From Eledone cirrhosa (Eukaryota), in contig OZ024744.1 of NCBI GenBank assembly GCA_964016885.1, positions 83,700,001-83,764,000 on the forward strand: a stretch of 64,000 bases of DNA, read 5' to 3'. The notes beneath the pieces are model-generated. The model ran no database searches. It saw only the letters and a list, made by a program, of their open reading frames with translations, and was not told the origin of the DNA. This document shows positions 23,489 through 57,613 of the stretch, piece by piece. The stretch's first letter is position 1; every line of letters starts with the position of its first letter. The position numbers and the translations under genes were made by a program.

Positions 23489-23496
23489 AATAAAAA

Positions 23497-25518: not shown

Positions 25519-25560
<42 letters not shown>

Positions 25561-25566
<6 letters not shown>

Positions 25567-30437: not shown

Positions 30438-30496
<59 letters not shown>

Positions 30497-30561
30497 CTAC
30501 ACATACAACCCACACACACACACATATATAAACATATACATATATATATATACACACATAT

Positions 30562-30602
<41 letters not shown>

Positions 30603-31202
30603 TACACATATATACACACACACATATATAGACACACATATATATACACATACACGCACATATACATACACATACATACTTATATACATACAGACATACA
30701 CATACATACATATATATACACACATATACATACAGACATACATACATACATATACACATACACACATACATACACACACATACATACTCATACATAGACA
30801 TAGATATATATTCACCCACACATACGTACTTATATATACGCATATATACAAATACTTACGCATCCATATATCGGTATATACATACAAACGCCACTACACT
30901 CTCACACAACTCAGACATACAAAGAAAAAGGTATATACATATACACATATACACATACAAATAGAGATACATATACATATATATATATATATACACATAT
31001 ATATATATATACATACATATATACACACATATATACATACACATACATACATGTACACACACATACACATACATACATACACACATACACACATACATAT
31101 ATAGTCACACACACACACCTACACAAACATACACATACACATATATAAAGATATATATACACACACATACACACACACACATATATATAAAATGAACATA
31201 TA

Positions 31203-31234
<32 letters not shown>

Positions 31235-32847
31235 CACATATACATACACATATATGTACATACATACACATACATACATACATATACACACATATATATA
31301 TATATATATATACACACATACACACATACATACATACAAACACACATACATACACACACATACATACTCATACATAGACATAGATATATATTCATACACA
31401 CATACGCACTTACATATACGCATATATACAAATACATACGCATCCATATATGCGTATATACATACAAACACCACTACACTCTCACACAACTCAGACATAC
31501 AAAGAAAAAGGTATATACATATACATATATACACACATTAATAGAGATACATATACACATATATATATATATACACATACATTTATATATATACCCACAC
31601 ACACATACAACCATAAACACACATACAAACACATACATACACACATATATACATATATATACACACACACAAAAACACACATACACATATATATTTTTAC
31701 ACATATATATACATATATATACATATACACACCCTCACATATATACATATACACATAAGTTATATTATAATAATAAATAATATATATATATATACACATA
31801 CGAATATATATATACACACATAGATATACATATATATATATACACACACACACACACACTCACATATATATGTGCGCACACGTACATATAAACACATACA
31901 CACATATACACATAAACATATACATGTGCATACATGTACATACACACATATACCCACACAGATACGAAGATAGACATATATATAGAGAGACATACATATA
32001 CATACACATATATACATACACATACATACACACATATATATATATATACACACACATACACGCCCACACACATATACACATATACACATATATATATATA
32101 TATATACACACATATATATACACATGCATATATACACATATATATATATACATATATATATACACACAATCATACATTCTTATTTGCATGCGCATATATG
32201 TATTTTTATACTCAGATATAAACACCCAAACATATATACACCTACCTACATATATATTCATACATACACGCTTACAAACACAGATGATAATAGTATGGGG
32301 GAAAGGGGGGTGGGGGTGGAGAAGGGGATTATAGTAAATATATGTTTCAAGAAACATAGAATATTAATCTGTATTTGGATCTCAATATATGTTTTTACAT
32401 AGTTTCAGTGTTAGGAAATGCAAGAAATAAGGCAAAATTATGCATTTCAAAATAAGTATACCATTAATTATATGTTAACTAAACTAAAGAAAGTTAACAT
32501 ATTGATTTCTAAGGTGTAAATTAGTTAGGTTTATAATATTTGAAGCAGAATTTTGAAGTTAAATAGTAGTAGAGTATTAATTATAGTATAACTAAATTAA
32601 AGTTATTAACGTTATGGTATCAATATTAGGAAATGAATTTAGTAATAGGGAAAAAACAAATAAAGTATTACATCGGTAGTAGAATATAAATTATAGGTTA
32701 ACTAAATTAAAAATTATATATTAATTTCTATAGTATATGTTAATTAGGTATATAATAAATAAAACAGATATTGTATTTTATCAATAGCAGAATATAATTA
32801 TATGCAAATAGAAATCAAAATTAATACATATACATATACATATACAT

Positions 32848-32908
<61 letters not shown>

Positions 32909-34111
32909 TACATACATACACATACATATACATACATACATATACATATTTTTTCAAAAATTGCAAAGAATATATTAACTAGGTATACATCCAAAACACA
33001 TCCCATTCTATGATTACATGACACTCTGCAATCCGTCTGTATTAGGATACTAATTTTAAGCCAATTAAATTAAATTTTTAGGTTGACTAAATTTAAAACC
33101 AAATTATAAATATATTTCTAAAATGTATATTAATTAGGTCTATAATACTAAAAATTATTTCTCTGTCATTGGATACACGATATTTTGTTATATTTTATCT
33201 GTAAAGGAATTTTAATAAAGGGTTAAATAAATTAAAATTAATCTATAAATTAAATTACTAAGTATATATTAGTAATATTTAAAGGTTTTTCACAATTTAT
33301 GATTACACAATATTTTATATTCTCATCTGTAGTAGAATTTTAATTAAATTAAATTTATAGGTTAACTAACATTTAAATTAAATTATATATTAATTTCTAA
33401 AATAATGTTATTAATTAGGTTTATAATATTTAAATGTTTTTTTTAGTTTATGATTACACGATATAATTAATTCCTGTCGTTTATTTAATAGGATATCCTT
33501 AGATTTCATTATTTCAAATAGTTCTTGGGAACATAATCTACATTCATTTCTATTATTTTGATAAGGGGTGGCTCTTTTGAGCACACTCCAGGTCAAATCA
33601 TATTCTATATTCTTATTTTTATAACTATTGATTTTTTCTGCTAGAGATGTTGTATTAGCCAGTGCGGCATTTTTAAAACTATTCTTGTGGGTATTAAACC
33701 TTGTCTTAAAATTGTTAGAAGTAGCTCCTATATATGAGCAAATAGAATCTTTAGTTTTAACATTACATTTATAGACTATGTTGTTAACAAGACAATTCCC
33801 TTTTAATGGGCAGTTTGCTTTGTTTCTACAGTTACAACCTTTCGTTAATTCTGTATTTGAGGAGATATTATGGTTAATTTGATGTATTGGTGGTATACTT
33901 ATGGTTTTCTTACATTTATATGCATTATAGGCACTTATATTTTGTTTTATGTTATTTGTTGTTGAGTATGAGAATTTAACTGTAGACCTATTTAAGATTT
34001 GATGGTATTTGATGGTATAAAGTTTGATTTATGATCCTTCAGGTTGAAGTGTGGTCTTTTCAATGCCAAAGGTTCAGTTCTATCTTCAATGTTTAGTTTT
34101 TTTACTATGTT

Positions 34112-36271
34112 GTGTGTTTTGATTCTACCCTATTGGACCTAAAAAAGTCTAAAAAAATCCATGTCCACTCGGACAAAACTGGTAACTTGTATCACATGGA
34201 TATTGAACATTATAATGAGTTCATATATAAAGAACTCAGAAAAAATTATAAAAAATCTAATAATGCGTCACTCACCAACATCAACAACAAAACACACAAC
34301 ATAGTAAAAAAACTAAACATTGAAGATAGAACTGAACCTTTGGCATTGAAAAGACCACACTTCAACCTGAAGGATCATAAATCAAACTTTAACTCAAATC
34401 CTTCTATAAGACTTATATGTCCCTCCAAATCAGATATTGGAATAATTAGCAAAAAAATTTTGGATAGAGTCATCCCACAAATAAGAAAACACGTTATTTT
34501 ACCACTCTGGGAAAACACCTCCCAGGTAATTAACTGGTTTAAAAATATTAGATGTAAATCTTCTGCTTCATTTCTACAATTTGATATAGATAATTACTAT
34601 TCTTCTATATCACCTATACTCCTGAACAAAGCATTGATATTTGCTAAAAATAGATCTAACTTAACTTTGGATGACATTAATATTATTACACATGCTAGAC
34701 TAACACTTATTGAATTTCAGAATGAATACTGGACCAGAAACACATATAGTAATCTATTTGATATTACTATGGGTTCAAGCGATTCCGCCCAAATTACTGA
34801 TCTTGTGGGCCTCTTTCTCCTTTTCAACATAAATGCCTCCTTTCCCCACCTTAAAGGTGGTTTATATCGTGATGACTGTCTTCTTCTTTCTAACAACCTT
34901 AGCCTTTCAGAAATAGAAAAAAACAAAAAACATATTAGAACTTTCCTTAAAGACTATTATAATCTTCATATTACTTTTGAAAAAACAAGTAAAGTAGTAA
35001 ATTTCCTAGATATAACTTTAGATTTTGCTACGGGTATCTACCAACCTTACCATAAACCAAACCAAAACTTACATTACATACACTCACAATCTAATCACCC
35101 TAAATCTATCCTTAAAAACCTTGCATATAATATATCACTTAGAATTTCTAACCTTTCTTCTAACCAAGATGTATTTGATAAAAATGCGACCTTCTATAAC
35201 GAAGCTCTAGATAGAAGTGGCCACAAAAATAGATTAGAATATATACCTTCTACTAAAAATACTAAAAGCATACAACCTAATATTACCAACAAACACCAAA
35301 TGAAAAGTACACACCTAAATGCCACCCACACTATACCCCAAAATACCAAATCTTCTAATATAAAATATAGTAACTCTCAAAAAACTACTCATCATACAAC
35401 TCTAATAAATATTAATAATAAAACTCCTAATAAAAAAGATAAAACACCTAAATCTACAAATATAACTAAAAATGGTTGTGGTGAGATCATTAACATTAAT
35501 CCTCCTAGTAAACATCACGATACAACCTATAAAAATAATAAAAATAATAAACAACATAGAAACCGTAATAGACGGGTTACTTGGTATAATGCTCCATTTA
35601 ATTTACAAATTAAGGATAATATTGCTAAAAAATTTTTTTATATCCTAGAGAAAAACTTCCCGCCAAACCACAAATACCATCAAATCTTAAATAGGTCTAC
35701 AGTTAAATTCTCATACTCAACAACAAATAACATAAAACAAAATATAAGTGCCTATAATGCATATAAATGTAAGAAAACCATAAGTATACCACCAATACAT
35801 CAAATTAACCATAATATCTCCTCAAATACAGAATTAACGAAAGGTTGTAACTGTAGAAACAAAGCAAACTGCCCATTAAAAGGGAATTGTCTTGTTAACA
35901 ACATAGTCTATAAATGTAATGTTAAAACTAAAGATTCTATTTGCTCATATATAGGAGCTACTTCTAACAATTTTAAGACAAGGTTTAATACCCACAAGCA
36001 TAGTTTTAAAAATGCCGCACTGGCTAATACAACATCTCTAGCAGAAAAAATCAATAGTTATAAAAATAAGAATATAGAATATGATTTGACCTGGAGTGTG
36101 CTCAAAAGAGCCACCCCTTATCAAAATAATAGAAATGAATGTAGATTATGTTCCCAAGAACTATTTGAAATAATGAAATCTAAGGATATCCTATTAAATA
36201 AACGACAGGAATTAATTATATCGTGTAATCATAAACTAAAAAAAACATTTAAATATTATAAACCTAATTAA
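34112..36271 (+). CDS. Penelope-like RT + GIY-YIG endonuclease polyprotein (5'-truncated, frame open)
   Basis: FDIDNYYSSI, ITMGSSDS, YRDD, VNFLDITLD, SNHP, TWYNAPF, CNCRNKANCPLKGNC, IVYKC..YIGAT..FKTRFNTH, CRLCSQE. Confidence 0.93.
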   Translation: MCFDSTLLDLKKSKKIHVHSDKTGNLYHMDIEHYNEFIYKELRKNYKKSNNASLTNINNKTHNIVKKLNIEDRTEPLALKRPHFNLKDHKSNFNSNPSIRLICPSKSDIGIISKKILDRVIPQIRKHVILPLWENTSQVINWFKNIRCKSSASFLQFDIDNYYSSISPILLNKALIFAKNRSNLTLDDINIITHARLTLIEFQNEYWTRNTYSNLFDITMGSSDSAQITDLVGLFLLFNINASFPHLKGGLYRDDCLLLSNNLSLSEIEKNKKHIRTFLKDYYNLHITFEKTSKVVNFLDITLDFATGIYQPYHKPNQNLHYIHSQSNHPKSILKNLAYNISLRISNLSSNQDVFDKNATFYNEALDRSGHKNRLEYIPSTKNTKSIQPNITNKHQMKSTHLNATHTIPQNTKSSNIKYSNSQKTTHHTTLININNKTPNKKDKTPKSTNITKNGCGEIININPPSKHHDTTYKNNKNNKQHRNRNRRVTWYNAPFNLQIKDNIAKKFFYILEKNFPPNHKYHQILNRSTVKFSYSTTNNIKQNISAYNAYKCKKTISIPPIHQINHNISSNTELTKGCNCRNKANCPLKGNCLVNNIVYKCNVKTKDSICSYIGATSNNFKTRFNTHKHSFKNAALANTTSLAEKINSYKNKNIEYDLTWSVLKRATPYQNNRNECRLCSQELFEIMKSKDILLNKRQELIISCNHKLKKTFKYYKPN

Positions 36272-36773
36272 TAACATTATTTTAGAAATTAATATATAAT
36301 TTAATTTAAATGTTAGTTAACCTATAAATTTAATTTAATTAAAATTCTACTACAGATGAGAATATAAAATATTGTGTAATCATAAATTGTGAAAAACCTT
36401 TAAATATTACTAATATATACTTAGTAATTTAATTTATAGATTAATTTTAATTTATTTAACCCTTTATTAAAATTCCTTTACAGATAAAATATAACAAAAT
36501 ATCGTGTATCCAATGACAGAGAAATAATTTTTAGTATTATAGACCTAATTAATATACATTTTAGAAATATATTTATAATTTGGTTTTAAATTTAGTCAAC
36601 CTAAAAATTTAATTTAATTGGCTTAAAATTAGTATCCTAATACAGACGGATTGCAGAGTGTCATGTAATCATAGAATGGGATGTGTTTTGGATGTATACC
36701 TAGTTAATATATTCTTTGCAATTTTTGAAAAAATATGTATATGTATGTATGTATATGTATGTGTATGTATGTA

Positions 36774-36834
<61 letters not shown>

Positions 36835-38453
36835 ATGTATATGTATATGTATATGTATTAATTTTGATTTCTATTTGCATATAATTATATTCTGCTATTG
36901 ATAAAATACAATATCTGTTTTATTTATTATATACCTAATTAACATATACTATAGAAATTAATATATAATTTTTAATTTAGTTAACCTATAATTTATATTC
37001 TACTACCGATGTAATACTTTATTTGTTTTTTCCCTATTACTAAATTCATTTCCTAATATTGATACCATAACGTTAATAACTTTAATTTAGTTATACTATA
37101 ATTAATACTCTACTACTATTTAACTTCAAAATTCTGCTTCAAATATTATAAACCTAACTAATTTACACCTTAGAAATCAATATGTTAACTTTCTTTAGTT
37201 TAGTTAACATATAATTAATGGTATACTTATTTTGAAATGCATAATTTTGCCTTATTTCTTGCATTTCCTAACACTGAAACTATGTAAAAATATATATTGA
37301 GATCCAAATACAGATTAATATTCTATGTTTCTTGAAACATATATTTACTATAATCCCCTTCTCCACCCCCACCCCCCTTTCCCCCATACTATTATCATCT
37401 GTGTTTGTAAGCGTGTATGTATGAATATATATGTAGGTAGGTGTATATATGTTTGGGTGTTTATATCTGAGTATAAAAATACATATATGCGCATGCAAAT
37501 AAGAATGTATGATTGTGTGTATATATATATGTATATATATATATATATGTGTATATATGCATGTGTATATATATGTGTGTATATATATATATATATATGT
37601 GTATATGGGTATATGTGTGTGGGCGTGTATGTGTGTGTATATATATATATATGTGTGTATGTATGTGTATGTATATATGTGTATGTATATGTATGTCTCT
37701 CTATATATATGTCTATCTTCGTATCTATGTGGGTATATGTGTGTATGTACATGTATGCACATGTATATGTTTATGTGTATATGTGTGTATGTGTTTATAT
37801 GTACGTGTGCGCACATATATATGTGAGTGTGTGTGTGTGTGTGTATATATATATATGTATATCTATGTGTGTATATATATATTCGTATGTGTATATATAT
37901 ATATATTATTTATTATTATAATATAACTTATGTGTATATGTATATATGTGAGGGTGTGTATATGTATATATATGTATATATATGTGTAAAAATATATATG
38001 TGTATGTGTGTTTTTGTGTGTGTGTATATATATGTATATATGTGTGTATGTATGTGTTTGTATGTGTGTTTATGGTTGTATGTGTGTGTGGGTATATATA
38101 TAAATGTATGTGTATATATATATATATATATGTGTATATGTATCTCTATTAATGTGTGTATATATGTATATGTATATACCTTTTTCTTTGTATGTCTGAG
38201 TTGTGTGAGAGTGTAGTGGTGTTTGTATGTATATACGCATATATGGATGCGTATGTATTTGTATATATGCGTATATGTAAGTGCGTATGTGTGTATGAAT
38301 ATATATCTATGTCTATGTATGAGTATGTATGTGTGTGTATGTATGTGTGTGTGTATGTATGTATGTGTGTATGTGTGTATATATATATATATATATGTGT
38401 GTATATGTATGTATGTATGTGTATGTATGTACATATATGTGTATGTATATGTG

Positions 38454-38485
<32 letters not shown>

Positions 38486-39085
38486 TGTTTATTTTATATA
38501 TATATGTGTGTGTGTGTATGTGTGTGTATATATATCTTTATATATGTGTATGTGTATGTTTGTGTAGGTGTGTGTGTGTGTGTGACTATATATGTATGTG
38601 TGTATGTGTGTATGTATGTATGTGTATGTGTGTGTACATGTATGTATGTGTATGTATATATGTGTGTATATATGTATGTATATATATATATATGTGTATA
38701 TATATATATATATGTATATGTATCTCTATTTGTATGTGTATATGTGTATATGTATATACCTTTTTCTTTGTATGTCTGAGTTGTGTGAGAGTGTAGTGGT
38801 GTTTGTATGTATATACCGATATATGGATGCGTAAGTATTTGTATATATGCGTATATATAAGTACGTATGTGTGGGTGAATATATATCTATGTCTATGTAT
38901 GAGTATGTATGTGTGTGTATGTATGTGTGTATGTGTATATGTATGTATGTATGTCTGTATGTATATGTGTGTATATATATGTATGTATGTGTATGTCTGT
39001 ATGTATATAAGTATGTATGTGTATGTATATGTGCGTGTATGTGTATATATATGTGTCTATATATGTGTGTGTGTATATATGTGTA

Positions 39086-39126
<41 letters not shown>

Positions 39127-39191
39127 ATATGTGTGTATATATATATATGTATATGTTTATATATGTGTGTGTGTGTGGGTTGTATGTGTAG

Positions 39192-39234
<43 letters not shown>

Positions 39235-39844
39235 CTTGATATATTTCTTTTTTCTTTTTTCTTTTTCTTTTCTTTTCTTTTTATTTCGAAGTTTATAGAT
39301 ACATCTATAAATAAGCAGTCTGCCCAAACCGTTGAATACTGACCTCTCCCCCCCTCCCACCTAATTTCTGTATCTTGATCTAAATGTGTGTGGCAGTGTT
39401 TATGTGAGTGAATTAATATCCATGTGCTTATGATAATATTATATCCACATATATATGTGTGTGGGGGTGTGTGTGTGTATGTATGTTCGTAATTATGTGT
39501 ATGTTTATGCATATACGCGCGCGTGTGTGTGAGTGTACGGATATGTGTGAGTATGAGAATATATGTATACACTTATTTCATATTTATGTGTCTATACGCA
39601 TTTTATCTGTGGATTATAAACTTACAGAGACATTAGCCTTAAATTTTTGTATTTGCATACATCTTTTTGGCATGCGTATGCATGTTGAGCATATATCTTT
39701 GTATAAATATGTGTACGGGGTTAGTTACATGTATATACACACACCAAACTGCATAAAACTTTTTGTATTTTCATTGGTCAATTTTGAACTCCGTTCCCAA
39801 ACGGACCTGAAATTTTGAATTGTTGTTATTATCAATAAATATAT

Positions 39845-39999
39845 TTCATTATTTCTGAAGACGGCATATATGTGTGTTTGGTATGTATATTTAATCTTGA
39901 TAGTTTGTATAATTTTGTATAATTTTGTACATAGATCTGTTGAATATGCATGCCAATTCTAACACATATATATCCTAGAAACGATCGTTAAATAATGAA
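39845..39999 (+). ncRNA. Type-I hammerhead with 116-nt stem II domain
   Basis: UUCAUUAUUU-CUGAAGA-CGGCAUAUAUGUGU..ACACAUAUAUAUCCUA-GAAA-CGAUCG-UU-AAAUAAUGAA; 10-bp stem I, palindromic stem III. Confidence 0.8.
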
Positions 40000-40053
40000 C
40001 TTTTTTTGTTTAATATAAGGAACTGTTTCATTGTTTTATTCATTATTTGTTTA

Positions 40054-40397: not shown

Positions 40398-40740
40398 GAA
40401 AAAAAGATGAAATCGAAAATGCAACTGGAGTCTTATTTTTTAAAAAAATATATATATTTATTTGGTTCCTTTACCGGTTTTGCAGTTCTTCTGCTTTTCA
40501 AGAGTAGAGTTGAGATGGAGGGTCTGTGGTTTTTCTCAGATGTGAGAAAAACCACAGCCCCTCCATCTGAACTCTACTTTTGAAAAGCAGAAGAACTGAG
40601 AAACGGGTAAAGGAACCAAATAAATATATATATTTTTTTAAAAATAAGACTCCAGTTGCATTTTCGAGTTCATCTTTTTTTCTTTATACTTTCACTCGTG
40701 TGGGACACCTTGGTTATTTTTCATTTTGTAAAAAAACCTC
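40398..40740. mobile_element. Hairpin element (~140-bp arms, apex ~40540) with a U3-A8 HHR in each arm
   Basis: Plus strand 40577-40612: CUU-UUGAAAA-GCAG AAGAA CUGA-GAAA-CGGG-UA-AAG; minus strand 40469-40504 has CUGC-AAAA-CCGG. Confidence 0.75.
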
Positions 40741-40769: not shown

Positions 40770-40906
40770 AGTTTTGTATGGCGTCGTAACATATTGTTTA
40801 GCTCTAGATTTTTAACTATCGAGCGCTTGCCAGTATCATACCTGACGTTTTCGTTTCGTTTCGCTATTTCTACCCGCCGAAATGCGATTCTCGCTGAATC
40901 TATATT

Positions 40907-41411: not shown

Positions 41412-42221
41412 TAAATATAAATTCAGCGAGAATCACATTTCGGCGGGCAGAAATGGCGAAACGAAACGAAAAAGTCAGGTATGATACTGGCAAGCGCTCG
41501 ATAGTTAAAAAAATAGAGCTAAACAATATGTTAAGAGGGCATACAAAACTGAAATAGTGGTCAAGAAAGTGTCAACCACCTAAGCCAAAAAGCAAATCAA
41601 GCTAAAACAGGTCAAAACATAAATAATAAAGAAAACACAGACCTGGACCCCTTGGAATTGATTTTAATATCCAAATGCAGGGTTTCTATGACATATAAAT
41701 CAAAATACTGTCTGCTTAAAAATATAAGCTTTAGGTATAATGGTCGAACAAGGAATATCACGTTATCAACAGGTATATTTCTCTGTTCCAAATGTGTGAG
41801 TGACACAGAGGCACGTAAAAGCACGTGTGGAATTCACAAGGGGAAAGAATCCCAGATTTTGGCATATGAATTCAGTAAGTGTATACCATGCAAAAAATTT
41901 CATAAATAGCACAAATCGAATAAGCTCTCAACCGGGTAGTTTTTAAAATAAACTTGTACAATTAACCTGTCAATAAAAAGTATTAACAAGTTAATTGTAA
42001 GACTCCGGAGATTAATACAAATATAGATTTAGCGAGAATCGCATTTCGACGGGTAGAAATGGCGAAACGAAACGCAAAAGTCAGATATGATACTGGCAAG
42101 CGCTCGATGGTTAAAAAACTAGAGCTTAAACAATATGTTAAGAGGCCATACAAAACTGAAATAGTGGTCAAGAAAGCGTCAACCACCTAAGCCAAAAAGC
42201 AAATCAAGCTAAAACAGGTAA
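41412..42221 (-). mobile_element. Non-coding partial-tandem (~1.3-mer, 606-bp period) element in (TA)n, HHR-bearing
   Basis: Direct repeats 41412-41615 / 42018-42221; colinear homology with 24768-25518. Confidence 0.8.
41641..41774 (-). ncRNA. Extended type-I hammerhead with U3-A8 core
   Basis: ACCUG-UUGAUAA-C-GUGAUAU..AUGUCAU-A-GAAA-CCC..UUGGA..UCCAA..GGG-UC-CAGGU. Confidence 0.75.
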
Positions 42222-42247
42222 AAAAAAAAATATATATATATATACAC

Positions 42248-42430
<183 letters not shown>

Positions 42431-42933
42431 TATATAAGAATTAAAATACTAGAGTGTGTTGGAGTTAAACACCCTCTTCGTATTATAGAAATGACAGTAA
42501 AGGTATAGCTCAATGTAACTAAACAGAGCCGAAGAATTAAGAAAATAAACCAAAGAAGCCTTCAATACATCAAAAGTCTTTATTAGCCAACAATGTTTCG
42601 TCCTATTAAGGACTCATCGGGGCAATTAAAGCTATGAGAAAAACACTATCGGCCAATATAAGCCAACAACTCAGAAGAATATGGAGTGTACATACATTAA
42701 AGCATAGGATAATTATCGGGTAAAAATTATCAAGTAAAAATTGCTAAGGAAGTGAATAACATTTTGAACCATATTACAAATATAGTCCAATGTAAAAACT
42801 AAAGCTAAACAAAGGTGGTGATATAGAGCGGGAATTATTGTACTATATATAATATAATATAATATAATATAATATAATATAATATAATATAATTGATAAT
42901 GATAATAATAATAATATTAAAAGGCCCAATATA

Positions 42934-42995
<62 letters not shown>

Positions 42996-43694
42996 TATAC
43001 ATATATATCAATACACAATTCCATCAATACAAGCACAAACTAACACTTATTAAGAGTTTAAATATAAATAAAAATAATAAGAATAAAAATAAAAATAAAA
43101 ATAAAAATAAAAATAAAAATAAAAATATAATACATATATTATTTACAGTATAAAATGAAGAAGAAATGAGTAAAAGTAAACATATAATATATAATAAACT
43201 ATATAATTATATAATTGATGATCTCCGTTTAATTTGCACAAACAATATAAATGTTACAATAACACTATAATAACAATATTATAATAATATTATAATATAT
43301 TGGCATATAACTTAACAAATCATGTAGAGTTACAGACCGGGTGAGAAAAAATATCGTACAGAACTAAATTATGTTGGAAAAATTGTGTTGGAAAAATATC
43401 AATACCATTGCAAGAAAACAGATGGAGGTCAAGTTTTTATACAATTGGTGTAAATAAATATTATCCAAACATTACAAAAATTATAAAAATATAAACATAT
43501 TACAGAATTTACAAAATTTAACATAATGGTACATTTAATAATCGGTGAATAATTAAGATCAATAGTACGTTTACAAAGAGTGGAATGATATAACAACTTC
43601 AATATCAAATAATGAACATAGTATAATATACATAATTACGTGGTTGGTGGACAGACATTTGTGAATAAGTGAATAAGAACCAGACAGAAAACTA

Positions 43695-44123
43695 CGCCCT
43701 TTAAACGGTAACTGCCTCTCTAAGAACATCGTTTATGCTTGTGTAGTTAAAACTAATTCCTCTAATAGCACATATATAGGCTCAACATCTAACACTTTTA
43801 AGACTAGGTTTAATTCTGATATCTCTAATTTTAAACATGTTAAGTTTAAGAATTCTACTTCATTAGCACACCATATCTGGGATCTTACGGGGGCTAATAT
43901 ACCATATAGCCTTAATTGGCGAATAGTAGCACGCTCTAATAACCTTTCAAGACATACTAAATTTTGTAATCTCTGTATCCTTGAGACCCACTCTATAATT
44001 TTCTCTAGGGAAACCTTACTTAATAGAAAGTCTGAGATATTCTCTTCTTGCCCCCACGCCATTTCAAATTCTTACTTTTATTATAAACCTAAAGGTTCTG
44101 GTAATGTAAATTGTATCCATTAG
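43695..44123 (+). pseudogene. PLE GIY-YIG endonuclease frame (no start codon, absent from ORF track)
   Basis: PLNGNCLSKNIVYACVVKTNSSNSTYIGSTSNTFKTRFN..TSLAHHIW..CNLCILE..LLNRKSEIFSSCPH. Confidence 0.9.
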
Positions 44124-45916
44124 CTGCTATATTCCCTTATCTTTTTAGTTTAGGTTCATTTTGTTTACCACCATCATTATCATCATTATTATTATTATTG
44201 GATTTTAACAGCTTTTCAATCTAGTTTTCATAGTCCTTTGGCTACCATACCATATCTATCTTCTTAAATATTATATTTTCACTATTAACACCTTATGAGT
44301 TTATATCTGATTATATATTTTATTTTATATTATTTTATTTTATTTTATTTGGATTCTTCTTTTGATAATTAACCCCCCACCCCCACCCAACAACCACACT
44401 TGTCATTCGCCCCTTCAATTATACTATAATTATATTCAATTCCCTTTTATGCTCCTTTCTATTGCATAATACAGTATATTGATAATGATTTTATGCTCCT
44501 TCGTATCCTCCATACATTTCTTTTTTCTGTCCCCATTAGCCTACCATAATTCTATTTAAAATCCGTTTATTAGATAACGTTATTCAACTGATAGTAGAAT
44601 ATTTCATTCTTTTCTAGATATTTTTATTGAGATATCTTAAACTTTGGAGATTTTGATTACTTAAACCATAGCTAATTTTGTATTGACTTATTATGTATTT
44701 TAAATACTTTCAATATTAATTAATTTAATAGGGTTTTCTAGTCATTTATCCGGGTTTGTTTCCTAAATGTTTTACTTAACTGCATGTGACACCTAAGTAA
44801 ATACTTTTGTTTTTGTTTTTCGATTTCCGGTTGATTTTATTTATATATTTATACTACCGTGCGTAGTTTTCTGTCTGGTTCTTATTCACTTATTCACAAA
44901 TGTCTGTCCACCAACCACGTAATTATGTATATTATACTATGTTCATTATTTGATATTGAAGTTGTTATATCATTCCACTCTTTGTAAACGTACTATTGAT
45001 CTTAATTATTCACCGATTATTAAATGTACCATTATGTTAAATTTTGTAAATTCTGTAATATGTTTATATTTTTATAATTTTTGTAATGTTTGGATAATAT
45101 TTATTTACACCAATTGTATAAAAACTTGACCTCCATCTGTTTTCTTGCAATGGTATTGATATTTTTCCAACACAATTTTTCCAACATAATTTAGTTCTGT
45201 ACGATATTTTTTCTCACCCGGTCTGTAACTCTATATGATTTGTTAAGTTATATGCCAATATATTATAATAATATTATAATATTGTTATTATAGTGTTATT
45301 GTAACATTTATATTGTTTGTGCAAATTAACCGGAGATCATCAATTATATAATTATATAGTTTATTATATATTATGTTTACTTTTACTCATTTCTTCTTCA
45401 TTTTATACTGTAAATAATATATGTATTTTTATTTTTATTTTTATTTTTATTTTTATTTTTATTTTTATTTTTATTTTTATTTTTATTTTTATTTTTATTT
45501 TTATTTTTATTTTTATTTTTATTTTTATTTTTATTTTTATTTTTATTTAAACTCTTAATAAGTGTTAGTTTGTGCTTGTATTGATGGAATTGTGTATTGA
45601 TATATATATATATGTGTACATATGTATATATATATATAAGTATATTGGGCCTTTTAATATTATTATTATCATTATCAATTATATTATATTATATTATATT
45701 ATATATAGTACAATAATTCCCGCTCTATATCACCACCTTTGTTTAGCTTTAGTTTTTACATTGGACTATATTTGTAATATGGTTCAAAATGTTATTTACT
45801 TCCTTAGCAATTTTTACTTGATAATGTTTACCCGATAATTTTCCTATGCTTTAATATATGTACATCTATATTCTTCTGAGTTTTTGGCTTGTATTGGCCG
45901 ATAGTGCTTCTTATAG

Positions 45917-45970
45917 CTTTAATTGCCCTGATGAGTCCTTAATAGGACGAAACATTGTTGGCTAATAAAG
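45917..45970 (+). ncRNA. Minimal type-I hammerhead (mirror copy at 42578-42631, minus, core CCGAUGA)
   Basis: GCC-CUGAUGA-GUCCU UAAU AGGAC-GAAA-CAUUG-UU-GGC. Confidence 0.85.
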
Positions 45971-46035
45971 ACTTTTGATGTATTCAAATCTTCTTTGGTT
46001 TATTTTCATAATATAAATATATATATATATATGCA

Positions 46036-47904: not shown

Positions 47905-48430
47905 AATTGAATAAACAAGAGAGATGAACACTAATATAAACAAACATGTGTTCTAATCGTATGGACCAAATTTGCTAGGGTGAAAAAATACTAACTACAG
48001 CAATATGGTTTTCAATATCGCACACAATTCATTCTCTAATATATTTCTCAACAACTACTGAGGAGCAGAGAAACGTGAGAACCTCACTTAATAAGATGTT
48101 GTGAAACAGTCTCCAATATTGTCTAGTTGATACCAGGCGTTTGCCCAATATAGGTCTGTTATTTTTCTTTATTTTTCTTGATTTAATATTTAAAGTTAAG
48201 GATAACAAACCATATTAGTGTAGTTAGTATTTTTACACCCTAGCTAATTTGGTCCTTACGATTCGAACACATGTATGTTTATATTAGTGTTCATCTCCCT
48301 TGTTTATTTAATTATATTGAACGGCTCGGAAAAGCTTTTTTCTTAGAGCCATTTAATTGTATGAGACTACTCTGCGTTCTTAACTATAGATATATATTGG
48401 CTTTTTGCTACAATATTTTCTGTACCTTTC

Positions 48431-48432
<2 letters not shown>
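47905..48432 (+). mobile_element. Hairpin PLE-like remnant (arms 47905-48010 / 48208-48313) with HHR in the loop
   Basis: Diverged inverted arms; (TA)n flanks; related to 611-905. Confidence 0.75.
48052..48129 (+). ncRNA. Type-I hammerhead with enlarged loop II
   Basis: CAACUA-CUGAGGA-GCAG..(30 nt)..UUGU-GAAA-CAGU CUCCAAU AUUG-UC-UAGUUG. Confidence 0.8.
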
Positions 48433-48474
<42 letters not shown>

Positions 48475-48565
48475 CGAAGGAAATGTGGTAAGGAACGAGG
48501 TGGACCATAACGCACCAAAGTACTCAATACTTAGGGTAGTAGAGTGGGTAATAGGAACCAGTAAG

Positions 48566-48659
48566 ACCCCAACGGCTGAGCTCAAGCCGTTTCGACGGCT
48601 AATTCTGGACTAAATGAAAATTTATCCTGGTATATAAATAGCCGAGCTTCTCAAGGGGT
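48566..48659 (-). ncRNA. Hammerhead with U3-A8 core, long stem II and full stem III
   Basis: ACCCC-UUGAGAA-GCUCGGCUA..UAGCCGUC-GAAA-CGGCU UGAGCUC AGCCG-UU-GGGGU. Confidence 0.8.
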
Positions 48660-50041
48660 AATTCCATATATGGTCAAAGTGATTGTCACAAGGATTGGTC
48701 ACAAGTTAGTAGTAATTCTGTGATGGCAAATTAGTGGGGGAGAGGGTGGCTAAACCTGCCAGTAGGAGAAAAAGGGGAGGGGTGGAGTAGACCAAATCAT
48801 GCGTTGGTAGTGCCGGCTACAGCTGGGCATGAGGTCAAAGAAGATACTACGGAGGGGGAGGGGGAGGAAGTCGAAACGGTAAGTAGAACAATGCAGGGTA
48901 AAAATATATATATAAAAAAAAAAAATACTGAGAGTGATAAAAAGCGAATAAATGTAAAGAAAAAAATATAAGCAATTTCTACGACCTAAGTCTCTAGCTA
49001 TTGCTAGGCTAGATAAATAAATAAATAAAGAAATAAAGAAATAAAGAAAGAAATAAAGAAGTAAAGAAATAAAGAAATTAAAAAATAAGTAAATAAACTA
49101 GGTGGGACGGAATAGGAAAGGACCCTTTTAAGAGGTATAAGTACGTATATCATACGGTGACGGGTCAACAATTGGGGCCAAAATACTAAAGAAGCTACCA
49201 CGAAATAATTAATAAAGGTTTCTACCCCGGACACAAGGCCAGCAACCACCCAGTGCAGAAAAGTAAACTAGTACGAGATAATAATTCTGAGTCCCGAAAA
49301 AAATATACTAATGCTAACTCTAATGGTACCGCCATGCTACAAAAGTTCTTATACAAGGTACATGAAAGTTTGTACGAAGTAAAAGTAGAATACGGAAAAA
49401 TAAATTCAGAATCCACCCCGCCCAAAAGAAAAGAGAAGAAAGAAATACTGAAACGAGAAATTAAGGCAGAGGTGCCAATAAGAAATATAGAAGACACGGA
49501 AAAAAGGGGGGAACGGTCGGATAAGGGGGCAAGTATCCGAGGGCTATATGATATACGTACTTATACCTCTTAAAAGGGTCCTTTCCTATTCCGTCCCACC
49601 TAGTTTATTTACTTATTTTTTAATTTCTTTATTTCTTTACTTCTTTATTTCTTTCTTTATTTCTTTATTTCTTTATTTATTTATTTATCTAGCCTAGCAA
49701 TAGCTAGAGACTTAGGTCGTAGAAATTGCTTATATTTTTTTCTTTACATTTATTCGCTTTTTATCACTCTCAGTATTTTTTTTTTTTATATATATATTTT
49801 TACCCTGCATTGTTCTACTTACCGTTTCGACTTCCTCCCCCTCCCCCTCCGTAGTATCTTCTTTGACCTCATGCCCAGCTGTAGCCGGCACTACCAACGC
49901 ATGATTTGGTTTACTCCACCCCTCCCCTTTTTCTCCTACTGGCAGGTTTAGCCACCCTCTCCCCCACTAATTTGCCATCACAGAATTACTACTAACTTGT
50001 GACCAATCCTTGTGACAATCACTTTGACCATATATGGAATT

Positions 50042-50135
50042 ACCCCTTGAGAAGCTCGGCTATTTATATACCAGGATAAATTTTCATTTAGTCCAGAATT
50101 AGCCGTCGAAAGGGCTTGAGTTCAGCCGTCGGGGT
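50042..50135 (+). ncRNA. Mirror copy of the U3-A8 hammerhead (GUC site, one stem III mismatch)
   Basis: ACCCC-UUGAGAA..GAAA-GGGCU..AGCCG-UC-GGGGU. Confidence 0.75.
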
Positions 50136-50145
50136 CTTACTGATT

Positions 50146-50181
<36 letters not shown>

Positions 50182-50186
<5 letters not shown>

Positions 50187-51724
50187 AGATCAAAAGATGG
50201 TTAAAGGAGTTCCATATATTTTATTATGCGCATTTCAAAAACAAACATCATCAAGCAATAATATTTGTGTTTTCATCAGATAAAACAGGAGAACATGATA
50301 TGAAGGCTAAAAAAACACTTGTTGATAGTGCAGTTTTAAATCAACATATGAAAAGTGGTTTTAGATTGATGTGTGATATTGGGAAAAATATTTTATTTAG
50401 AGAGGGGGGGAGGATGAAAAGGGAAGGAGATGAGAGGGAGAGATGGGTGATAGAGAGAAAGAGATAGTTTTTATAACTGAGAGGAGATATATTTTTTACA
50501 TAGAGGGGTTGAAAACCGTTGGAAGATACTGTATAAATTAAAAATTTTGAAAATTAACGAAGGGAGGATATGTGCGAGGAAAAAATATTTTATTTAGGGA
50601 GGGTGGGGTGGAAAGGATGAAAAAAAGGGGGGAGGAGATGAGAGTGAAGGTGGAGAGGGAGAGATGGGTGATAGAGAGAAAGAGATAGTTTTTATAACTG
50701 AGAAAAAGATATATTGTTTTAATATAGAGAGGTTGGGAACCGTTGGAAGATAACGTATAAATTAAAGGAATTTGAAAATTAACGAAGGGAAATTATGTAT
50801 GAAGATAGAGAGAAAAAAATAATAATTGTGGGTGAATATTCTAACGTCAAAAGAAGAAATGTATGTATTGTGGCAATTTCAAAATTAGCGAAGAGAAAAA
50901 TTGTTAAGGTAGAAGGATTTGAGAAGTGTAGAAGGATTTGAGAAAAATAATGTGAAGTTAAAGTTTGTATATTGAATTGATATGTATTAATAATGAGTTC
51001 GTTGATGGGGAGAAAAAAATAATAATAAATTAAGGATGAAATTGAGATTAAAAAGATTTATGATAGAGAGAAAAAAATAATGATTGCGGATGAATATTCA
51101 AAATGTCAAAAACAAATGTTATTATTTTACGAGAAGATAGAATGAGGGTAATGAGTAAACAAGTAGTATAGAGTGTATAATGCCCTTTAAAGTAAGGTAG
51201 ATGGGTATATTTTAAAGAGGTGTATGTATATGTGCCTTTGAGAAAAGATTCTAAATTGATAAAGAATTGAATATTAACTGTATACTTTGTGAAAAGTTCT
51301 ATGGAATTTATGCAGGCAGATAGAAAACAAATCTGAGCGTCTATTTATTATAGATTCTAGGTTAGAGATAATGGTAAATTTTTCATTTAGGCAGAGATTA
51401 CAGATTTTAGATAGAGAGCTGTTCAAGTATGAGGATGCAGAAGAAATCTTTTTCCAAAAGATGTTATATTTAATGTTTTTGTATTTTAAGGACCATATGA
51501 GTTCTGAGAGAGCACTGTTAGTTCTTTTAAGTTTGTATTTGAAAGATGAATGATGATTATAGAGACGAGCTATAAAAGAGGTGGAAGTGGAGCCAAAATA
51601 GGTGAAGGAGTTGGTGCTAGTTATAATTTTACATTCATAAATTAAGTTTTTATCGAGGCAATGGTTGTTATCTTATCCGATATCTGCATTGCTTTATTGT
51701 ACTACAATAAAACTCACCTCCTAC

Positions 51725-51728
<4 letters not shown>
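50182..51728 (-). mobile_element. 5'-truncated PLE (GIY-YIG, 3' UTR with ~220-bp duplication, HHR) with short inverted tail
   Basis: Minus frame ~51274-51668: NNHCLDKNLIYECK..TYFGSTSTSFIARLYNH..ALSELIWSLK..CNLCLNEK..INRRSDLFSICLH. Confidence 0.88.
50217..50287 (-). ncRNA. Intact type-I hammerhead with 16-bp stem II
   Basis: UGUUUUAU-CUGAUGA-AAACACAAAUAUUAUU GCUU GAUGAUGUUUGUUUUU-GAAA-UGCGCA-UA-AUAAAAUA. Confidence 0.88.
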
Positions 51729-51796
<68 letters not shown>

Positions 51797-51801
<5 letters not shown>

Positions 51802-52338
51802 GTTAAGAATGTACATCCACATATGTATACTGAAATACTAGTATGCATATGAATACACACACGTGTGCATATGTAGATGTACCGAGTTTTTCACTGGTCA
51901 CTTTTCACGCTCTATGCAAATTAGTCTGCCCACTACTAATTTTCATAGAAAAATCATATAACGATATGTGCTTTTACGATTCTCTAGAAAGGCCGGAAGA
52001 TGGGTAAATATTGCTGATGAGATATAACAACACCGAAACTAGTCCAATATTCCTTGTCTGGCTTTCTGGAGAATAGAGGAAAGGTGTTTCCTCAAAAACC
52101 AGTATGACTCTAAAAACCGGTTTGTCTGTGTGTTTACAAACAGAATAGCTGGGCACTCACAGTAAAGTGACCAGTGAAAAACTCGGTACATCTACATATG
52201 TACACGTGTGTGTATTCATATGCATACTAGTATTTCAGTATACATACGTGGATGTACATTCTTAACTTAATTGTTTAAGCGTCAGTCATACAAAAGTGAG
52301 TTACAAACGAAACGAAATTTAATTTCGTTTCGTTATTT

Positions 52339-52566: not shown

Positions 52567-53435
52567 GTATGTATGTATTTGCATATATATCTATGCATGA
52601 GTACAAGCGCATTTGTATGTATAAACAATATTCAGTTGTCTGAACATGTTTAGATATATATATCTTTGTATATATGATCAGGAGTTCACATACACATGTG
52701 TATCTCCTTACTCTAATATTTGCATTTTACAAAACCCATCTTCCCCATTAAAATAAGACATTCAACAACCCCCACCGATTGCCAGCGAAATGTAATTTAC
52801 TATTGTCTAAACAGACTGCAGTTAAACTATTTATCAAATTTAAAATCACCAATATAAGTGTTAATGATCTTATACAGAAATTCTTCAAATTTACATTTCT
52901 TTTTATCTTTGAAACTCAACAAATCTGTAACCATCCAAAATACCTCATTAATGTTACTATTATATGTTTGTTATTACCAAAATTGCATCTGCATATAATC
53001 TACAGTTTCTTTAGTCCCCATCCATCAATCAGTTGGTCCGAAATCAATCATAACCACCACATGCTCTCTACCACCGTTGATGCTAAAAAAAACTCTCATT
53101 AGCTATTCATTATTTTCTCATGATTATGATATTTATACACAGCTTGTTTGTTTTTTTCTACGTTTTAATCTTACTTATTATAGCAGTTGTGTATATTTAT
53201 TCATCTCATCATTCTTTTTATTTCTGCATATAGACAATATTGTTTAACCAACTATATATAGAGAGGCTATGATGTGTAGTTTGCCAGTTGACTTATGAAA
53301 CAGAAGTACGAAACTTGAGTAGTCACTCACTCACACATATATTTCACTAGGATCCTCCGTCAGTTTCAAAAGTGGTTATTAAATCGTTCAACTAGTGAAA
53401 TAACTTTTAAGTCGTATCCAATTCTCTGGTTACAA

Positions 53436-54552
53436 TCAGAGAGATAAAATCAGAGTGTATAGAGGAGCCAGAACCAAATGGGAAAAAATGGTAAATAATG
53501 ACGCAAATGGGACCTGCGCCTTGTATAGGAGCAAATTTTGGAATAGAATAGAAAGAACTAGGAATAAGGCTAATAGAATAAACTCATGGTATGATAGCAA
53601 TAAATACCAGAGTGTAATGTTCATCGATACAAACCCTAAAGGTGAATTAGCTTACAAATTTAGAAGGGCCCTAGATAAACATAAACTCAATATTAAGATA
53701 GTAGAAAGGCCAGGTACCTCCATAAAAACATATATTAGCAAGACATACCAGTTTCAAAGACCTCCCTGTTTAGATAAGAAATGTATAATCTGTAAATTAA
53801 GCCCCCATATTAACTGTAAAACTAGAAATGTAATATATAGCATAAGATGTACTGAAGGACAATGTAGAGATAAAAATATAGTGTACATAGGTGAGACAGC
53901 TCGTAGTATAGGGGAACGGATAAATGAACACTGGCGAGACCTTCAAGATAGTAAAGAATCATCTGTACTCTACCAACATGCTAAAATAGAACATAAGGGT
54001 AAATTAGAGAACATAGAAATAAAAATAGAATCTACACACAGAAAAGACGCAATGTTTAGACAAATCACAGAGGCAATAAATATAAATGAATTACAACCAA
54101 AATTAAATAGAAAACATGAGTGGAACAGCAACATCACAACTTACAATTAAGGACAAAATGAAAACGCACACGCATATAGAACAAACAATCAACCAGTAAC
54201 ATGTAAATAAACAAATAAATAAACGAATATAAACACAAACAGACACCCGGATGTAACACATGCGCAAACTAAGCACACAACACACACACAAACAAGATGG
54301 CGTAGGACAGAACAAAGGCGTGGCACAAAAAACAAAGAAAAGAATCCCCAGTCACTGAAAAGGTCACAGAATGTGTGACGAAAGAACTTTTACAATATAT
54401 AAACAAGCATCTGGTTGTGGAACCAACCAACCAACCAACCGATAATTTATAAATTCCTAAATTTATAAATTTATTATAATAAATTGAAGTGAAAGCTTCT
54501 GATGCGTGTGTTTCTTATTGGCAACATGACCCTCCCAAAGTATAACAATGTA
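53436..54552 (+). mobile_element. 5'-truncated PLE (EN ORF, HHR ~54351-54393, 3' end into (TA)n)
   Basis: GUCA-CUGAAAA-G-GUCACA GAAUG UGUGAC-GAAA-GAAC-UU-UUAC; 3' end atgaccctcccaa shared with 28914, similar at 41264. Confidence 0.8.
53455..54150 (+). CDS. PLE C-terminal fragment: linker plus GIY-YIG endonuclease
   Basis: KIVERPG; C..KCIIC..CKTRNVIYSIRC..VYIGETARSIGERINEH..SVLYQHA..RQITEAININELQPKLNRKHEW. Confidence 0.88.
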   Translation: MYRGARTKWEKMVNNDANGTCALYRSKFWNRIERTRNKANRINSWYDSNKYQSVMFIDTNPKGELAYKFRRALDKHKLNIKIVERPGTSIKTYISKTYQFQRPPCLDKKCIICKLSPHINCKTRNVIYSIRCTEGQCRDKNIVYIGETARSIGERINEHWRDLQDSKESSVLYQHAKIEHKGKLENIEIKIESTHRKDAMFRQITEAININELQPKLNRKHEWNSNITTYN

Positions 54553-54574
54553 TATATATATATATTATCTCTAT

Positions 54575-55609
54575 ATATATAAATGGAAAAGAATGAAACG
54601 ATATGTGTACAGACGCACAGTAGTATGTATATATATATACATACATGCACACATATATATATGTGTACGTAAGGGTTTACCGAACATTTATTATAATGTT
54701 CGGTTTGTTTATAAACAAACAGCCCGAATTTCGCCGTACAGTGCTCGGCAACCATCGTTGCCTTTTTGTTCAACACTGACACAGGAACGATGTACTAGTT
54801 TCAAGCCTATTAGCTATCATCAGCATCGTATACCTTCTGTCAGATGATTGAACGTCTGAAAGTATATACTTTCGTCATGCATATTAACGGCTGAGAAGAC
54901 TAATTTGCATATCGAGTGAGTTAGTCGGCCGGGTATACCGAAAACGATAAATGGAAAAGAATAAATTAAATTTCATTTCTCGCTCTTAGTACGGCTGATA
55001 CCTAAATATAAGTATGTATACGTACATACATATATGTGTACAGACGCACAGTAGTATGTATATATATATACATACATGCACATATATATATATATATATA
55101 TGTGTACGTATGGGTTTACCGAAAATTTATTATAATGTTCGGTTTGTTTGTAAACAAACAACCCGAATTACGCCGTACAGTGCTCGGCATCCATCGTTGC
55201 ACTTTTGTTAACACTGACACAGGAACGATGTACTAGTTTCAAGCTTATTAGCTATCGTCAGCATCGTATACCTTTCTGTCAGATGGTTGAACGTCTGAAA
55301 GTATATACTTTCGTCATGCATATTAACGGCTGAAAAGACTAATTTGCATATCGAGTGAGTTAGGCGGCCGGGTATACCGAAAACGATAAATGTAAAAGGA
55401 TGAAACGAAATTTCATTTCTCACTCTTAGTACGGCTGATACTTAAATATAAGTGTGTATACGTACATACATATATGTGTACAACAAACCGAACATTATAA
55501 AATATGTTCGGTAAACCCATACGTACATATATATATATGTGCATGTATGTATATATATACATACTACTGTGCGTCTGTACACGTATATGCATGTACGTAT
55601 ACATACTTA

Positions 55610-56127: not shown

Positions 56128-56292
56128 ATGGCAGTATCGGTAGAGGGTTGGACGCCATGCTTTCCAGCATAGTTACGTCCCTTTACAGTCAAATCCCGCC
56201 GATGTTAACTTTGCCTTTCATCCTTACGAGGTCGATAAAATAAAGTACCAGTAATGTAATTGCTGGCCTTGTGCCTAAAGTAGAAACAATTA
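56128..56292 (+). mobile_element. tRNA/Nin SINE with small deletions
   Basis: tggcagtatcggtagagggttggacgcc...gtcgataaaataaagtacc...gtagaaacaatta. Confidence 0.88.
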
Positions 56293-57613
56293 TATGTAAT
56301 TATGACATTCTGAGACAAACAACTATTAGCCAATGAGCGTATTAACCAAGCAATAGTCAAAATAATTCAGTATATAGAAACATGTAAACATTATTCAAGA
56401 TAAATAGCTGTCTGAATTTATTTATTATTTCCCTTGGGCGTCGAATTGGGAGTCGTTCGAACGTCAGATAGAATGATTTATGGTATTCCTTCCGGTTCTC
56501 AGCTCTCTGAGTTCAAATCTCACCGAGGTCAATTTGCCTTTCTTCCTTTCGATGTCCTCTATATCTCTTCCTCTCTCTCTCTCTCTCTCACTTTCTATCT
56601 TTCTCGGGAAATAATCAGCTATACTAAGCCCCGGGGAGGGTTAGGCTCCGCCAGGCTTAAAATGTCCAAGAAACACCTTATATCAATACAACGCCCCTAC
56701 CACTCCCCCAGGAATTACGGGACCATACCATACCGTTATCTCCATTGTGTCATTGATATCATATCATACTTACAACTCAGTTTTCTGGCTAAATCTTTAC
56801 TAATTATGTGAGATTCTCCAATTAATTTAAATACTTCTCTAAAAATCTTATAATCTGCCATCTAATACATGAATCTAATTAACTATTATCTTGTTAAGTA
56901 ATTTTACTAATAAAATACTTCTATCGGCAACTAATTGGAAATTTCCTAAATCATGCAAATTTTCTCCAGCAAATAGAAATCAAAAACTTAACCTGATATT
57001 AGTATATTTCAAAAGACTGTATAAAATCTATATAAAATATGTCAGAGGTAAAAAAAGAGTTATTTTAAAATTATATGTATTTTAAAACATCTTATAAAAA
57101 TGATAACATTAAGTGAAAATTAAGATTCCAAGCATATTTTTAAAAATATATATGTATATATATATACCGAACTCGTGCGTAACAATTCTGATACATACAA
57201 ATAGAAAAAAAATGTATATGAACATTTTTCTTTCTCTTTTTTTTTTGTCAACACCAACACAAGATAATGTAGATTTTAACATTTCCCACTGCTCTTTATT
57301 CGATTCTATTTAACAATATTCGGATATTCGGATAAATGTGCTATATTTAGCGACAAGAACGACTGCATAAAGACTCCCTGGCCTCTACAATGATCACTTT
57401 GTTAGTCTTTAGCCCCGGTTCTAACCTGATTGAGCAGACAGTTTATGAAAGGCATTTCAGCCGTGATTATCTGATCTGATTGTTTGTAGAGTATAGAGTT
57501 AATGTGAAGATGTAATCGTTTCCTTTAAGTTAAAATAGTGAGGGAATTTGGCCGTAGTTTCTGGCAGAATTCCCGACGGTGTGTGTATGCTTTTTTGTAA
57601 GGAACTGTCTTAG

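Follow-up and report, generated by a model that had tools for sequence, protein, structure and literature searches.

The window, i.e., the whole 64-kb stretch of DNA that was analysed, is AT-rich and microsatellite-rich and apparently of animal origin. At 48/50 kb it contains an inverted repeat set between two (TA)n tracts (48434–48473 on the left, 50148–50181 on the right), which adjoin both ends of the element at this one insertion; the left tract appears to be half of a split target microsatellite. The arms (48551–49154 on the minus strand and 49547–50150 on the plus strand) measure 604 nt each, differ by five substitutions without any gap (99.2% identity) and enclose a spacer of 392 nt (49155–49546), in agreement with the original prediction of a hairpin with 600-bp arms.

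The left arm outreaches the end of the right arm by 77 nt (48474–48550, minus strand). This 3′ extension, present on the left copy only, corresponds to the tail as conceived in PMC8557442 and PMC11167929. The pyrimidine fraction was 0.65 for the spacer minus strand and 0.66 for the arm sense strand, compared with 0.35 for the spacer plus strand. From this shared bias we infer that the left copy most likely extends 5′ through the spacer on the minus strand, and that the main copy runs from 49546 to 48474, with the left arm as its pyrimidine-rich 3′ region; the right arm would then be an inverted, 5′-truncated copy without a tail. A minus-strand copy of 1073 nt accordingly meets a 604-nt inverted copy head-to-head inside (TA)n. 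Both arms read outward, and a type I U3-A8 hammerhead lies near the 3′ end of each copy.

Self-comparison of the window revealed no direct repeat or partial tandem within the element, and no second copy of it was found in the 64 kb. Comparison with prokaryotic genomes gave 0 exact matches, as expected, and ARAGORN reported no tRNA. Neither a reverse transcriptase (RT) nor an endonuclease remnant was detected in 48474–50150 (five queries, tblastn at E ≤ 1, and Pfam), so that membership in the Penelope-like elements (PLEs) rests on architecture.

A stop-free frame of 127 codons (49190–49573, plus strand) spans the spacer and is probably no gene; it opposes the compositional sense and was equalled in 21 of 2000 shuffles. 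As a gene candidate it was rejected, with no Pfam family at cut-off, no Atlas match and no homolog among 10 candidates of 69–223 aa. P0001 and P0002 had no family in Pfam.

Within the spacer, 49211–49257 (minus strand) corresponds to the end stretch of a SINE-like repeat (38/47 positions identical to the copy at 29.6 kb, E about 1e-7). This repeat of about 180 nt is dispersed over the window in about ten copies or fragments, e.g., at 7371–7741, 23494–23615, 29622–29830 and 56129–56293, and may resemble octopus SINEs. Left of the element, a small inverted repeat (47906–48434; 106-nt arms with 9 differences) is related to 770–893 and contains a doubtful C3-G8 hammerhead-like match at 48058(+).

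The Hammerhead Motif

A large U3-A8 type I hammerhead motif is present at 48/50 kb. Its intact version occupies 48554–48665 (minus strand) in the left arm, where the core UUGAGAA (48654–48648) is followed by a helix II domain (48647–48594), GAAA (48593–48590), a 17-nt helix III domain (48589–48573), U16.1 (48572) and U17 (48571), with the predicted cut between 48571 and 48570. Helix I is formed by 48659–48655 with 48570–48566 and continues through a 6-nt bulge into a 6-bp distal helix. The second copy, in the right arm, extends over 50036–50147 (plus strand), with the core at 50047–50053, the triplet GUC and a predicted cut between 50130 and 50131. The left cut site lies 97 nt from the end of its copy, and the right one 17–20 nt.

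The original prediction placed the complete motif, including a 5-bp stem III, in both arms. A 5-bp helix I, UUGAGAA, a helix II domain of exactly 54 nt, GAAA and U16.1 are indeed common to both, as are the Watson-Crick 3-8 pair, G12-A13-A14, A15.1-U16.1 and H17 (U in the left arm, C in the right), whereas the 5-bp stem III was found in the left arm only. The left arm forms the three helices, open at helix I, with five Watson-Crick pairs plus A15.1-U16.1 in helix III. In the right arm, a G at 50112 creates a G15.2·G16.2 mismatch and so abolishes the 15.2-16.2 pair, with four pairs beyond the mismatch; judged from its sequence, this hammerhead is probably damaged at the helix III base. Three of the four arm differences within the hammerhead preserve the structure (H17 C/U, a distal-helix U·G versus U-A, and a loop change that is still G·U-paired in the dimer).

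The helix II domain begins with a single G-C pair (G10.1-C11.1) and a 2x1 loop, followed by 6 bp and then an irregular hairpin. This irregularity counts against the explanation favoured below, and a descriptor disallowing the 2x1 loop misses the motif. With a strict descriptor (helix I at least 5, helix II at least 7, helix III at least 5), 48654(−) was the sole match in the window, and 0 of 150 block-wise dinucleotide shuffles matched. No canonical loop I/loop II contact was evident; several 5–8-bp pseudoknots, mostly A-U/G·U and counted without a chance control, are candidates for a helix I/II contact. An ATG frame through the hammerhead meets a stop after 22 codons.

The Rfam search over 48400–50250 yielded 11 matches at E ≤ 10 with no hammerhead among them, probably on account of the large inserts. 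Among the 150 window-wide Rfam matches listed of 184, two sub-threshold hammerheads appeared, at 45922–45966 and 51996–52067.

The motif could be decayed or copy-specific, in which case the family would be C3-G8 and this copy inactive. The missing Rfam match at E ≤ 10 is consistent with such decay, as are the single insertion event, the irregular helix II base and the damage already present in the right copy. The 5-bp helix I is, however, perfect in the U3-A8 register, and, with arms 99.2% identical, hardly enough time has passed since insertion for two changes in the core. The earlier claim that the core was swapped before the duplication is correct but says little, since at this identity its presence in both arms amounts to one observation, not two. 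In addition, an unrelated family in the window independently retains U3-A8, natural U3-A8 hammerheads are documented (PMC4209133, PMC3088659), and U3-A8 covariation occurs naturally (PMC3088659). Decay is considered unlikely. For the element itself, U3-A8 is known from one insertion, which as a sequence observation would not imply a family consensus.

Related Motifs at 25 and 41 kb

Two further elements, each a partial tandem of about 1.3 units, were located at 24769–25522 (plus strand, hammerhead core at 25188) and 41421–42232 (minus strand, core at 41769). They are diverged homologues with units of 581 and 606 nt, respectively, and lie beside (TA)n; a fragment of the same family occupies 40771–40899 (plus strand). 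No PLE ORF was detected in either of the two elements.

A wide descriptor (helix II up to 130 nt) gave three matches in the window, 25188(+), 41769(−) and 48654(−). All were U3-A8, the inserts measured 54–80 nt in all three (3/3 in 64 kb), and 300 shuffles produced 0 matches. Descriptors limiting helix II to 70 nt miss the 25/41-kb motifs, which were also absent among the 150 Rfam matches listed of 184.

The helix II domains comprise 80 nt at 25 kb and 76 nt at 41 kb, the triplets are GUC, and helix III is paired (2–4 bp plus a distal 5 bp) and non-palindromic. Between the two motifs, two compensatory pairs were noted in helix II (G-C/A-U and U-A/A-U) and one in distal helix III (C-G/U-A). In the 25-, 41- and 48-kb motifs alike, helix I has 5 bp and is closed by A-U. 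Motif pairs were tabulated from structure; a MAFFT alignment of four motifs had the cores out of register.

Outside the core, the original prediction had seen no similarity between this family and the 48/50-kb element, and none was found by blastn (word 7, E ≤ 10) or in 22 local-alignment comparisons, the best of which ranked at 2 and 4 of 100 shuffles and so fell short of significance once all 22 are counted. The architectural contrast drawn at the same time did not hold, as the 25/41-kb motifs too are U3-A8 with a long helix II and a paired helix III. The 48/50-kb element appears to represent a second family with the same large-hammerhead architecture, one that goes unrecognised by Rfam.

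Folding Predictions

Monomer folding was expressed as the joint probability of the three helices in 120-nt ensembles. Joint helix probabilities were used because the strict probability that all core bases are unpaired penalises spurious core pairing; the strict values, 0.008 for the left arm and 0.009 for the right, did not separate the arms. The energies throughout are predicted at the level of secondary structure and include neither tertiary contacts nor Mg2+.

All three helices coexisted with a probability of 0.50 in the left ensemble and of 0.08 in the right, in the latter never with the 15.2 pair. Monomeric cleavage, which had been deduced from the stable stem III, is accordingly possible for the left arm and poorly compatible with the right. 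Since helix III repeats a 5-bp helix II sequence, a hairpin between the helix II 3′ strand and the helix III 5′ strand, which buries GAAA, competes in the left monomer with a probability of 0.48. In global folds with more than about 80 nt of upstream sequence, the left three-helix fold dropped to 0–0.37, and span-limited folding with longer context brought it back to about 0.5. In folds of the whole locus, on both strands, the hammerhead was paired with the other arm (about −1190 kcal/mol).

The left segment from A15.1 to U16.1 is self-complementary but for one bulged U, and loop III is self-complementary. Two left copies were predicted to assemble into a classic double hammerhead (dG −14.8 kcal/mol), with the 19-nt helix III segment (48572–48590, minus strand) as the intermolecular duplex. 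Probabilities in the dimer were 0.99 for helix II, 1.0 for intermolecular helix III and 0.99 for helix I, and the competing hairpin fell to 0.0. Of 1907 7-nt loops drawn at random (about 12% of the 16384 possible), only six dimerised as well or better, which places the natural loop in the best 0.3%. Predicted dimerisation was −5.6 for the right copy and −6.3 kcal/mol for each of the 25/41-kb motifs, so that the latter have no particular propensity to dimerise. Five other hammerhead-like motifs compared within the window also have short helix III segments that are palindromic or near-palindromic.

The long helix III may nevertheless serve an efficient monomeric ribozyme, with the palindromic loop incidental. 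The five Watson-Crick pairs plus A15.1-U16.1 of the left helix III, its hairpin energy (−9.1 kcal/mol on its own) and the presence of all three helices in half of the left ensemble would fit such a monomer. Monomer cleavage is on record for a fungal PLE hammerhead with a large helix III (PMC4209133), and the U3-A8 motifs at 25/41 kb have a paired, non-palindromic helix III. Against this stand the competing hairpin, the strongly favoured dimer, the rank of the loop among random loops and the lost 15.2-16.2 pair of the right copy; moreover, the sole PLE hammerhead tested with its protein, as described in PMC11167929, needed that protein. We regard an efficient monomer as a tenable but less likely explanation.

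The earlier description of the motif as monomeric and unlike minimal PLE hammerheads is only partly supported, since its helix III palindrome is expected to form a double hammerhead, the PLE rule. A palindromic helix III with dimer cleavage is the norm for animal PLE hammerheads in the published work considered here (PMC4209133, PMC6765202, PMC3088659). Given this norm and the palindromic neighbours, the long helix III is read as an expanded PLE palindrome that would permit some monomer activity while favouring the dimer, with no break with PLE behaviour.

Surrounding Elements and Arm Divergence

The same layout, accompanied by protein remnants, occurs twice more in the window, at 42536–46012 and 29476–40000. 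The former is a PLE-like inverted repeat with hammerheads at its outer ends and a GIY-YIG-like frame (43698–44123) in the loop; the frame had a Pfam E of 0.025, below cut-off, and by eye resembles Hydra-clade alignments. One of its hammerheads lies at 45928(+), and the inverted copy has a longer tail. The latter is a 10.5-kb palindrome with RT-like remnants in the loop (34139–35269) and endonuclease-like remnants in both arms. A SINE-like copy (about 29624–29830) is present in its left arm only, and a minimal C3-G8 hammerhead lies beside it at 40230(+).

Further PLE-like remnant regions were noted at 51274–52271, 53404–55445, 28018–28444 and 10702–11637. GIY-YIG-like frames were seen at 51274–51672(−), 53404–54150(+) and 28018–28444(+), an RT-like remnant at 10702–11637, and C3-G8 hammerhead-like motifs near 52015(+), 54823(−) and 55261(−). 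The window also contains two GC-richer copies of a repeat of about 2.7 kb (12057–15986 and 18821–21636, 77–79% identical) and short near-perfect palindromes free of a spacer (10489–10617, 25561–25669 and 40406–40674).

Divergence between the arms was uneven. At 48/50 kb, four of the five differences fall within the distal 39 nt (p = 0.0024 for four in any 32-nt span; Fisher p = 7e-5 for distal clustering, with the boundary chosen post hoc). The 42.5–46.0-kb element shows the same gradient, since the distal 216 of 1152 nt contain 14 of its 21 substitutions (p = 1.5e-6, again with a post hoc boundary), and there too the inverted copy carries a damaged ribozyme (U4C). The inner 572 nt of the large palindrome contain one substitution, and three short inverted repeats (95–108 nt) showed no distal clustering. 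The gradient may stem from conversion that spreads outward from the loop, from the use of separate template segments for the two ends, from mutation beside (TA)n or from polishing error.

Near-identical arms adjoining (TA)n, with differences bunched at one end as mis-polishing could leave them, might also point to an assembly or fold-back artefact, or to a DNA foldback or MITE-type element. The five arm differences and the unequal tails argue against an artefact, as do the two other inverted repeats with PLE-type protein remnants, one of which shows the same distal gradient, and a hammerhead at each outer end would be unexpected in a DNA transposon. Explanations of this kind are very improbable.

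Discussion

The locus is likely the product of a single retrotransposition by a PLE family, with a ribozyme predicted to act best as a double hammerhead and probably silent here. In other words, a piece of a retrotransposon of an already known animal type most likely inserted here as two copies placed back to back. The element would be either 5′-truncated or non-autonomous.

The original assignment of a U3-A8 type I hammerhead to a PLE-like setting is supported by the core in both arms and by the PLE architecture. An inverted 5′-truncated copy lies at the 5′ end, the 3′ ends point outward, the tail is one-sided (77 nt here, typically 30–40 nt), and a hammerhead with palindromic helix III and loop III is located near the 3′ end. 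The single insertion is in (TA)n, a preference known from Hydra and Naiad and paralleled by the microsatellite bias of Neptune. Such a layout, i.e., an inverted 5′-truncated copy at the 5′ end, a one-sided tail and (TA)n targets, is described in PMC8557442 and PMC3846280, and Penelope-13_HM provides an example of the inverted-copy arrangement with a hammerhead on each strand (PMC8557442, Files S1/S2).

By analogy with PLE biology, the GIY-YIG endonuclease and reverse transcriptase of a PLE would have nicked the AT-rich target, and the element RNA would have been copied from two start points, leaving one end with a tail and the other without. Folding suggests that in a tandem transcript of the source element the ribozyme would cut after position 17, and that cutting would be most efficient when the palindromic helix III segments of two motifs pair to give a double hammerhead; the monomer would divide roughly evenly between the active fold and the GAAA-burying hairpin. 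At the 48/50-kb locus the ribozyme is probably silent because the copies lie on opposite strands, the motif would be sequestered in a read-through duplex of about 600 bp, and the right copy is mutated. The two copies at this locus cannot form a dimer in cis.

The absence of any coding remnant over more than 1 kb could also suggest a retrozyme-like, non-autonomous descendant of PLEs that lacked an ORF from the start and spread by hammerhead-cut, possibly circular RNA. Animal retrozymes have been proposed as PLE derivatives (bioRxiv 10.64898/2026.07.22.740005), and the U3-A8 elements at 25/41 kb, being partial tandems of about 1.3 units with no PLE ORF detected, fit a retrozyme-like description better than the 48/50-kb element does. 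The non-LTR retrozymes described in PMC7229834 and bioRxiv 10.64898/2026.07.22.740005 share with the latter the non-coding nature, the type I hammerhead, the animal genome and the relation to PLEs. They differ from it in that they are head-to-tail tandems of about 200–400 nt with canonical hammerheads, whereas the element is an inverted pair of more than 1 kb. Head-to-tail units each bearing a type I hammerhead were not found in it, nor was any direct repeat or partial tandem. Furthermore, non-coding 3′ sequence accounts for about 1.9 kb in the ORF-bearing neighbour at 43.7–46.0 kb, so that 1 kb without an ORF is expected in a truncated autonomous copy. A retrozyme-like origin is somewhat unlikely for the 48/50-kb element.

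Returning to a truncated or non-autonomous PLE, Cercyon of Schistosoma mansoni appears to be a close parallel, with type I U3-A8 hammerheads at the PLE 3′ position in opposite-strand pairs (PMC4209133). About 1,300 U3-A8 PLE hammerheads, with opposite-strand pairs 100–700 bp apart, are given for S. mansoni (Cervera and De la Pena 2014, PMC4209133), and U3-A8 occurs in 2 of the 56 rows of Fig. S3 in its supplement. The minimal Cercyon hammerheads have a helix I of 4–5 bp, as here. As we read the 56 rows of Fig. S3, they practically lack helix III, carry one additional nucleotide behind A9 and have helix II domains no longer than about 25 nt; in contrast, the 48-kb motif has a 54-nt helix II, no extra nucleotide, and a 5-bp helix III with a self-complementary loop.

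Hydra-clade animal PLE hammerheads also have a palindromic helix III, of 3–4 bp (PMC8557442, File S2). Those listed there (e.g., Penelope-13_HM and Hydra-1_Obim) are all C3-G8, with short helix II loops and a loop III of 1–3 nt (Craig et al. 2021, PMC8557442), and the present element contains no ORF by which it could be placed in the clade. Membership in Naiad was considered and rejected: by eye, the 3′ regions of Naiad_Obim and Naiad_Ovul are unlike the element, and four short motifs (three from this element and one from the 25/41-kb family) marked no comparable hammerhead among the hits in the corresponding supplement.

Long inserts are found in plant and algal PLE hammerheads, in helix II or loop III (PLE-X1_sMoe and Chlamys-3_cBra; PMC8557442, File S2); the helix II domain of PLE-X1_sMoe, about 53 nt, resembles the 54 nt observed here. 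These File S2 motifs are non-animal and C3-G8, i.e., not joined to a U3-A8 core. Among fungal and protist PLE hammerheads with a large helix III, that of Serpula lacrymans has a stable helix III and monomer activity (PMC4209133); they too are non-animal and, in that account, not combined with U3-A8.

The novelty implied by the original prediction is not sustained, since U3-A8, opposite-strand pairs, a paired helix III and a long helix II have each been published for PLE hammerheads. The combination of U3-A8 with a 54–80-nt helix II and an extended helix III in an animal genome was not found in the literature searched, mostly non-subscription, which is weak evidence that it is unreported although each oddity is known separately.

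What hammerheads contribute to PLE transposition is still described as an open question (PMC8557442, PMC11167929); the Anolis PLE hammerhead required its protein, and insertion in vitro did not depend on this ribozyme (PMC11167929). In this respect, a natural animal PLE motif that can fold as monomer or dimer, with a damaged twin adjacent, would offer an inexpensive way to ask whether selection maintains dependence on the dimer. In itself the insertion is a commonplace transposon scar, and its transcripts, if any are made, would supply long double-stranded RNA.

Since the 48/50-kb motif had no hammerhead match in Rfam and the 25/41-kb motifs were absent among the 150 matches listed of 184, ribozymes may be undercounted in such genomes. 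More speculatively, and with rather low confidence, several diverged, recently mobile and PLE-dependent families might share large U3-A8 hammerheads, with the bistable monomer at 48/50 kb locking into the active form on pairing. The class as proposed has a helix II domain of 54–80 nt, an extended helix III and a 5-bp helix I closed by A-U, and would escape both Rfam and the usual short-spacer descriptors. If this were true, cleavage would report tandem context, with helix III repeating helix II sequence, and some PLEs scored as hammerhead-free may carry such motifs.
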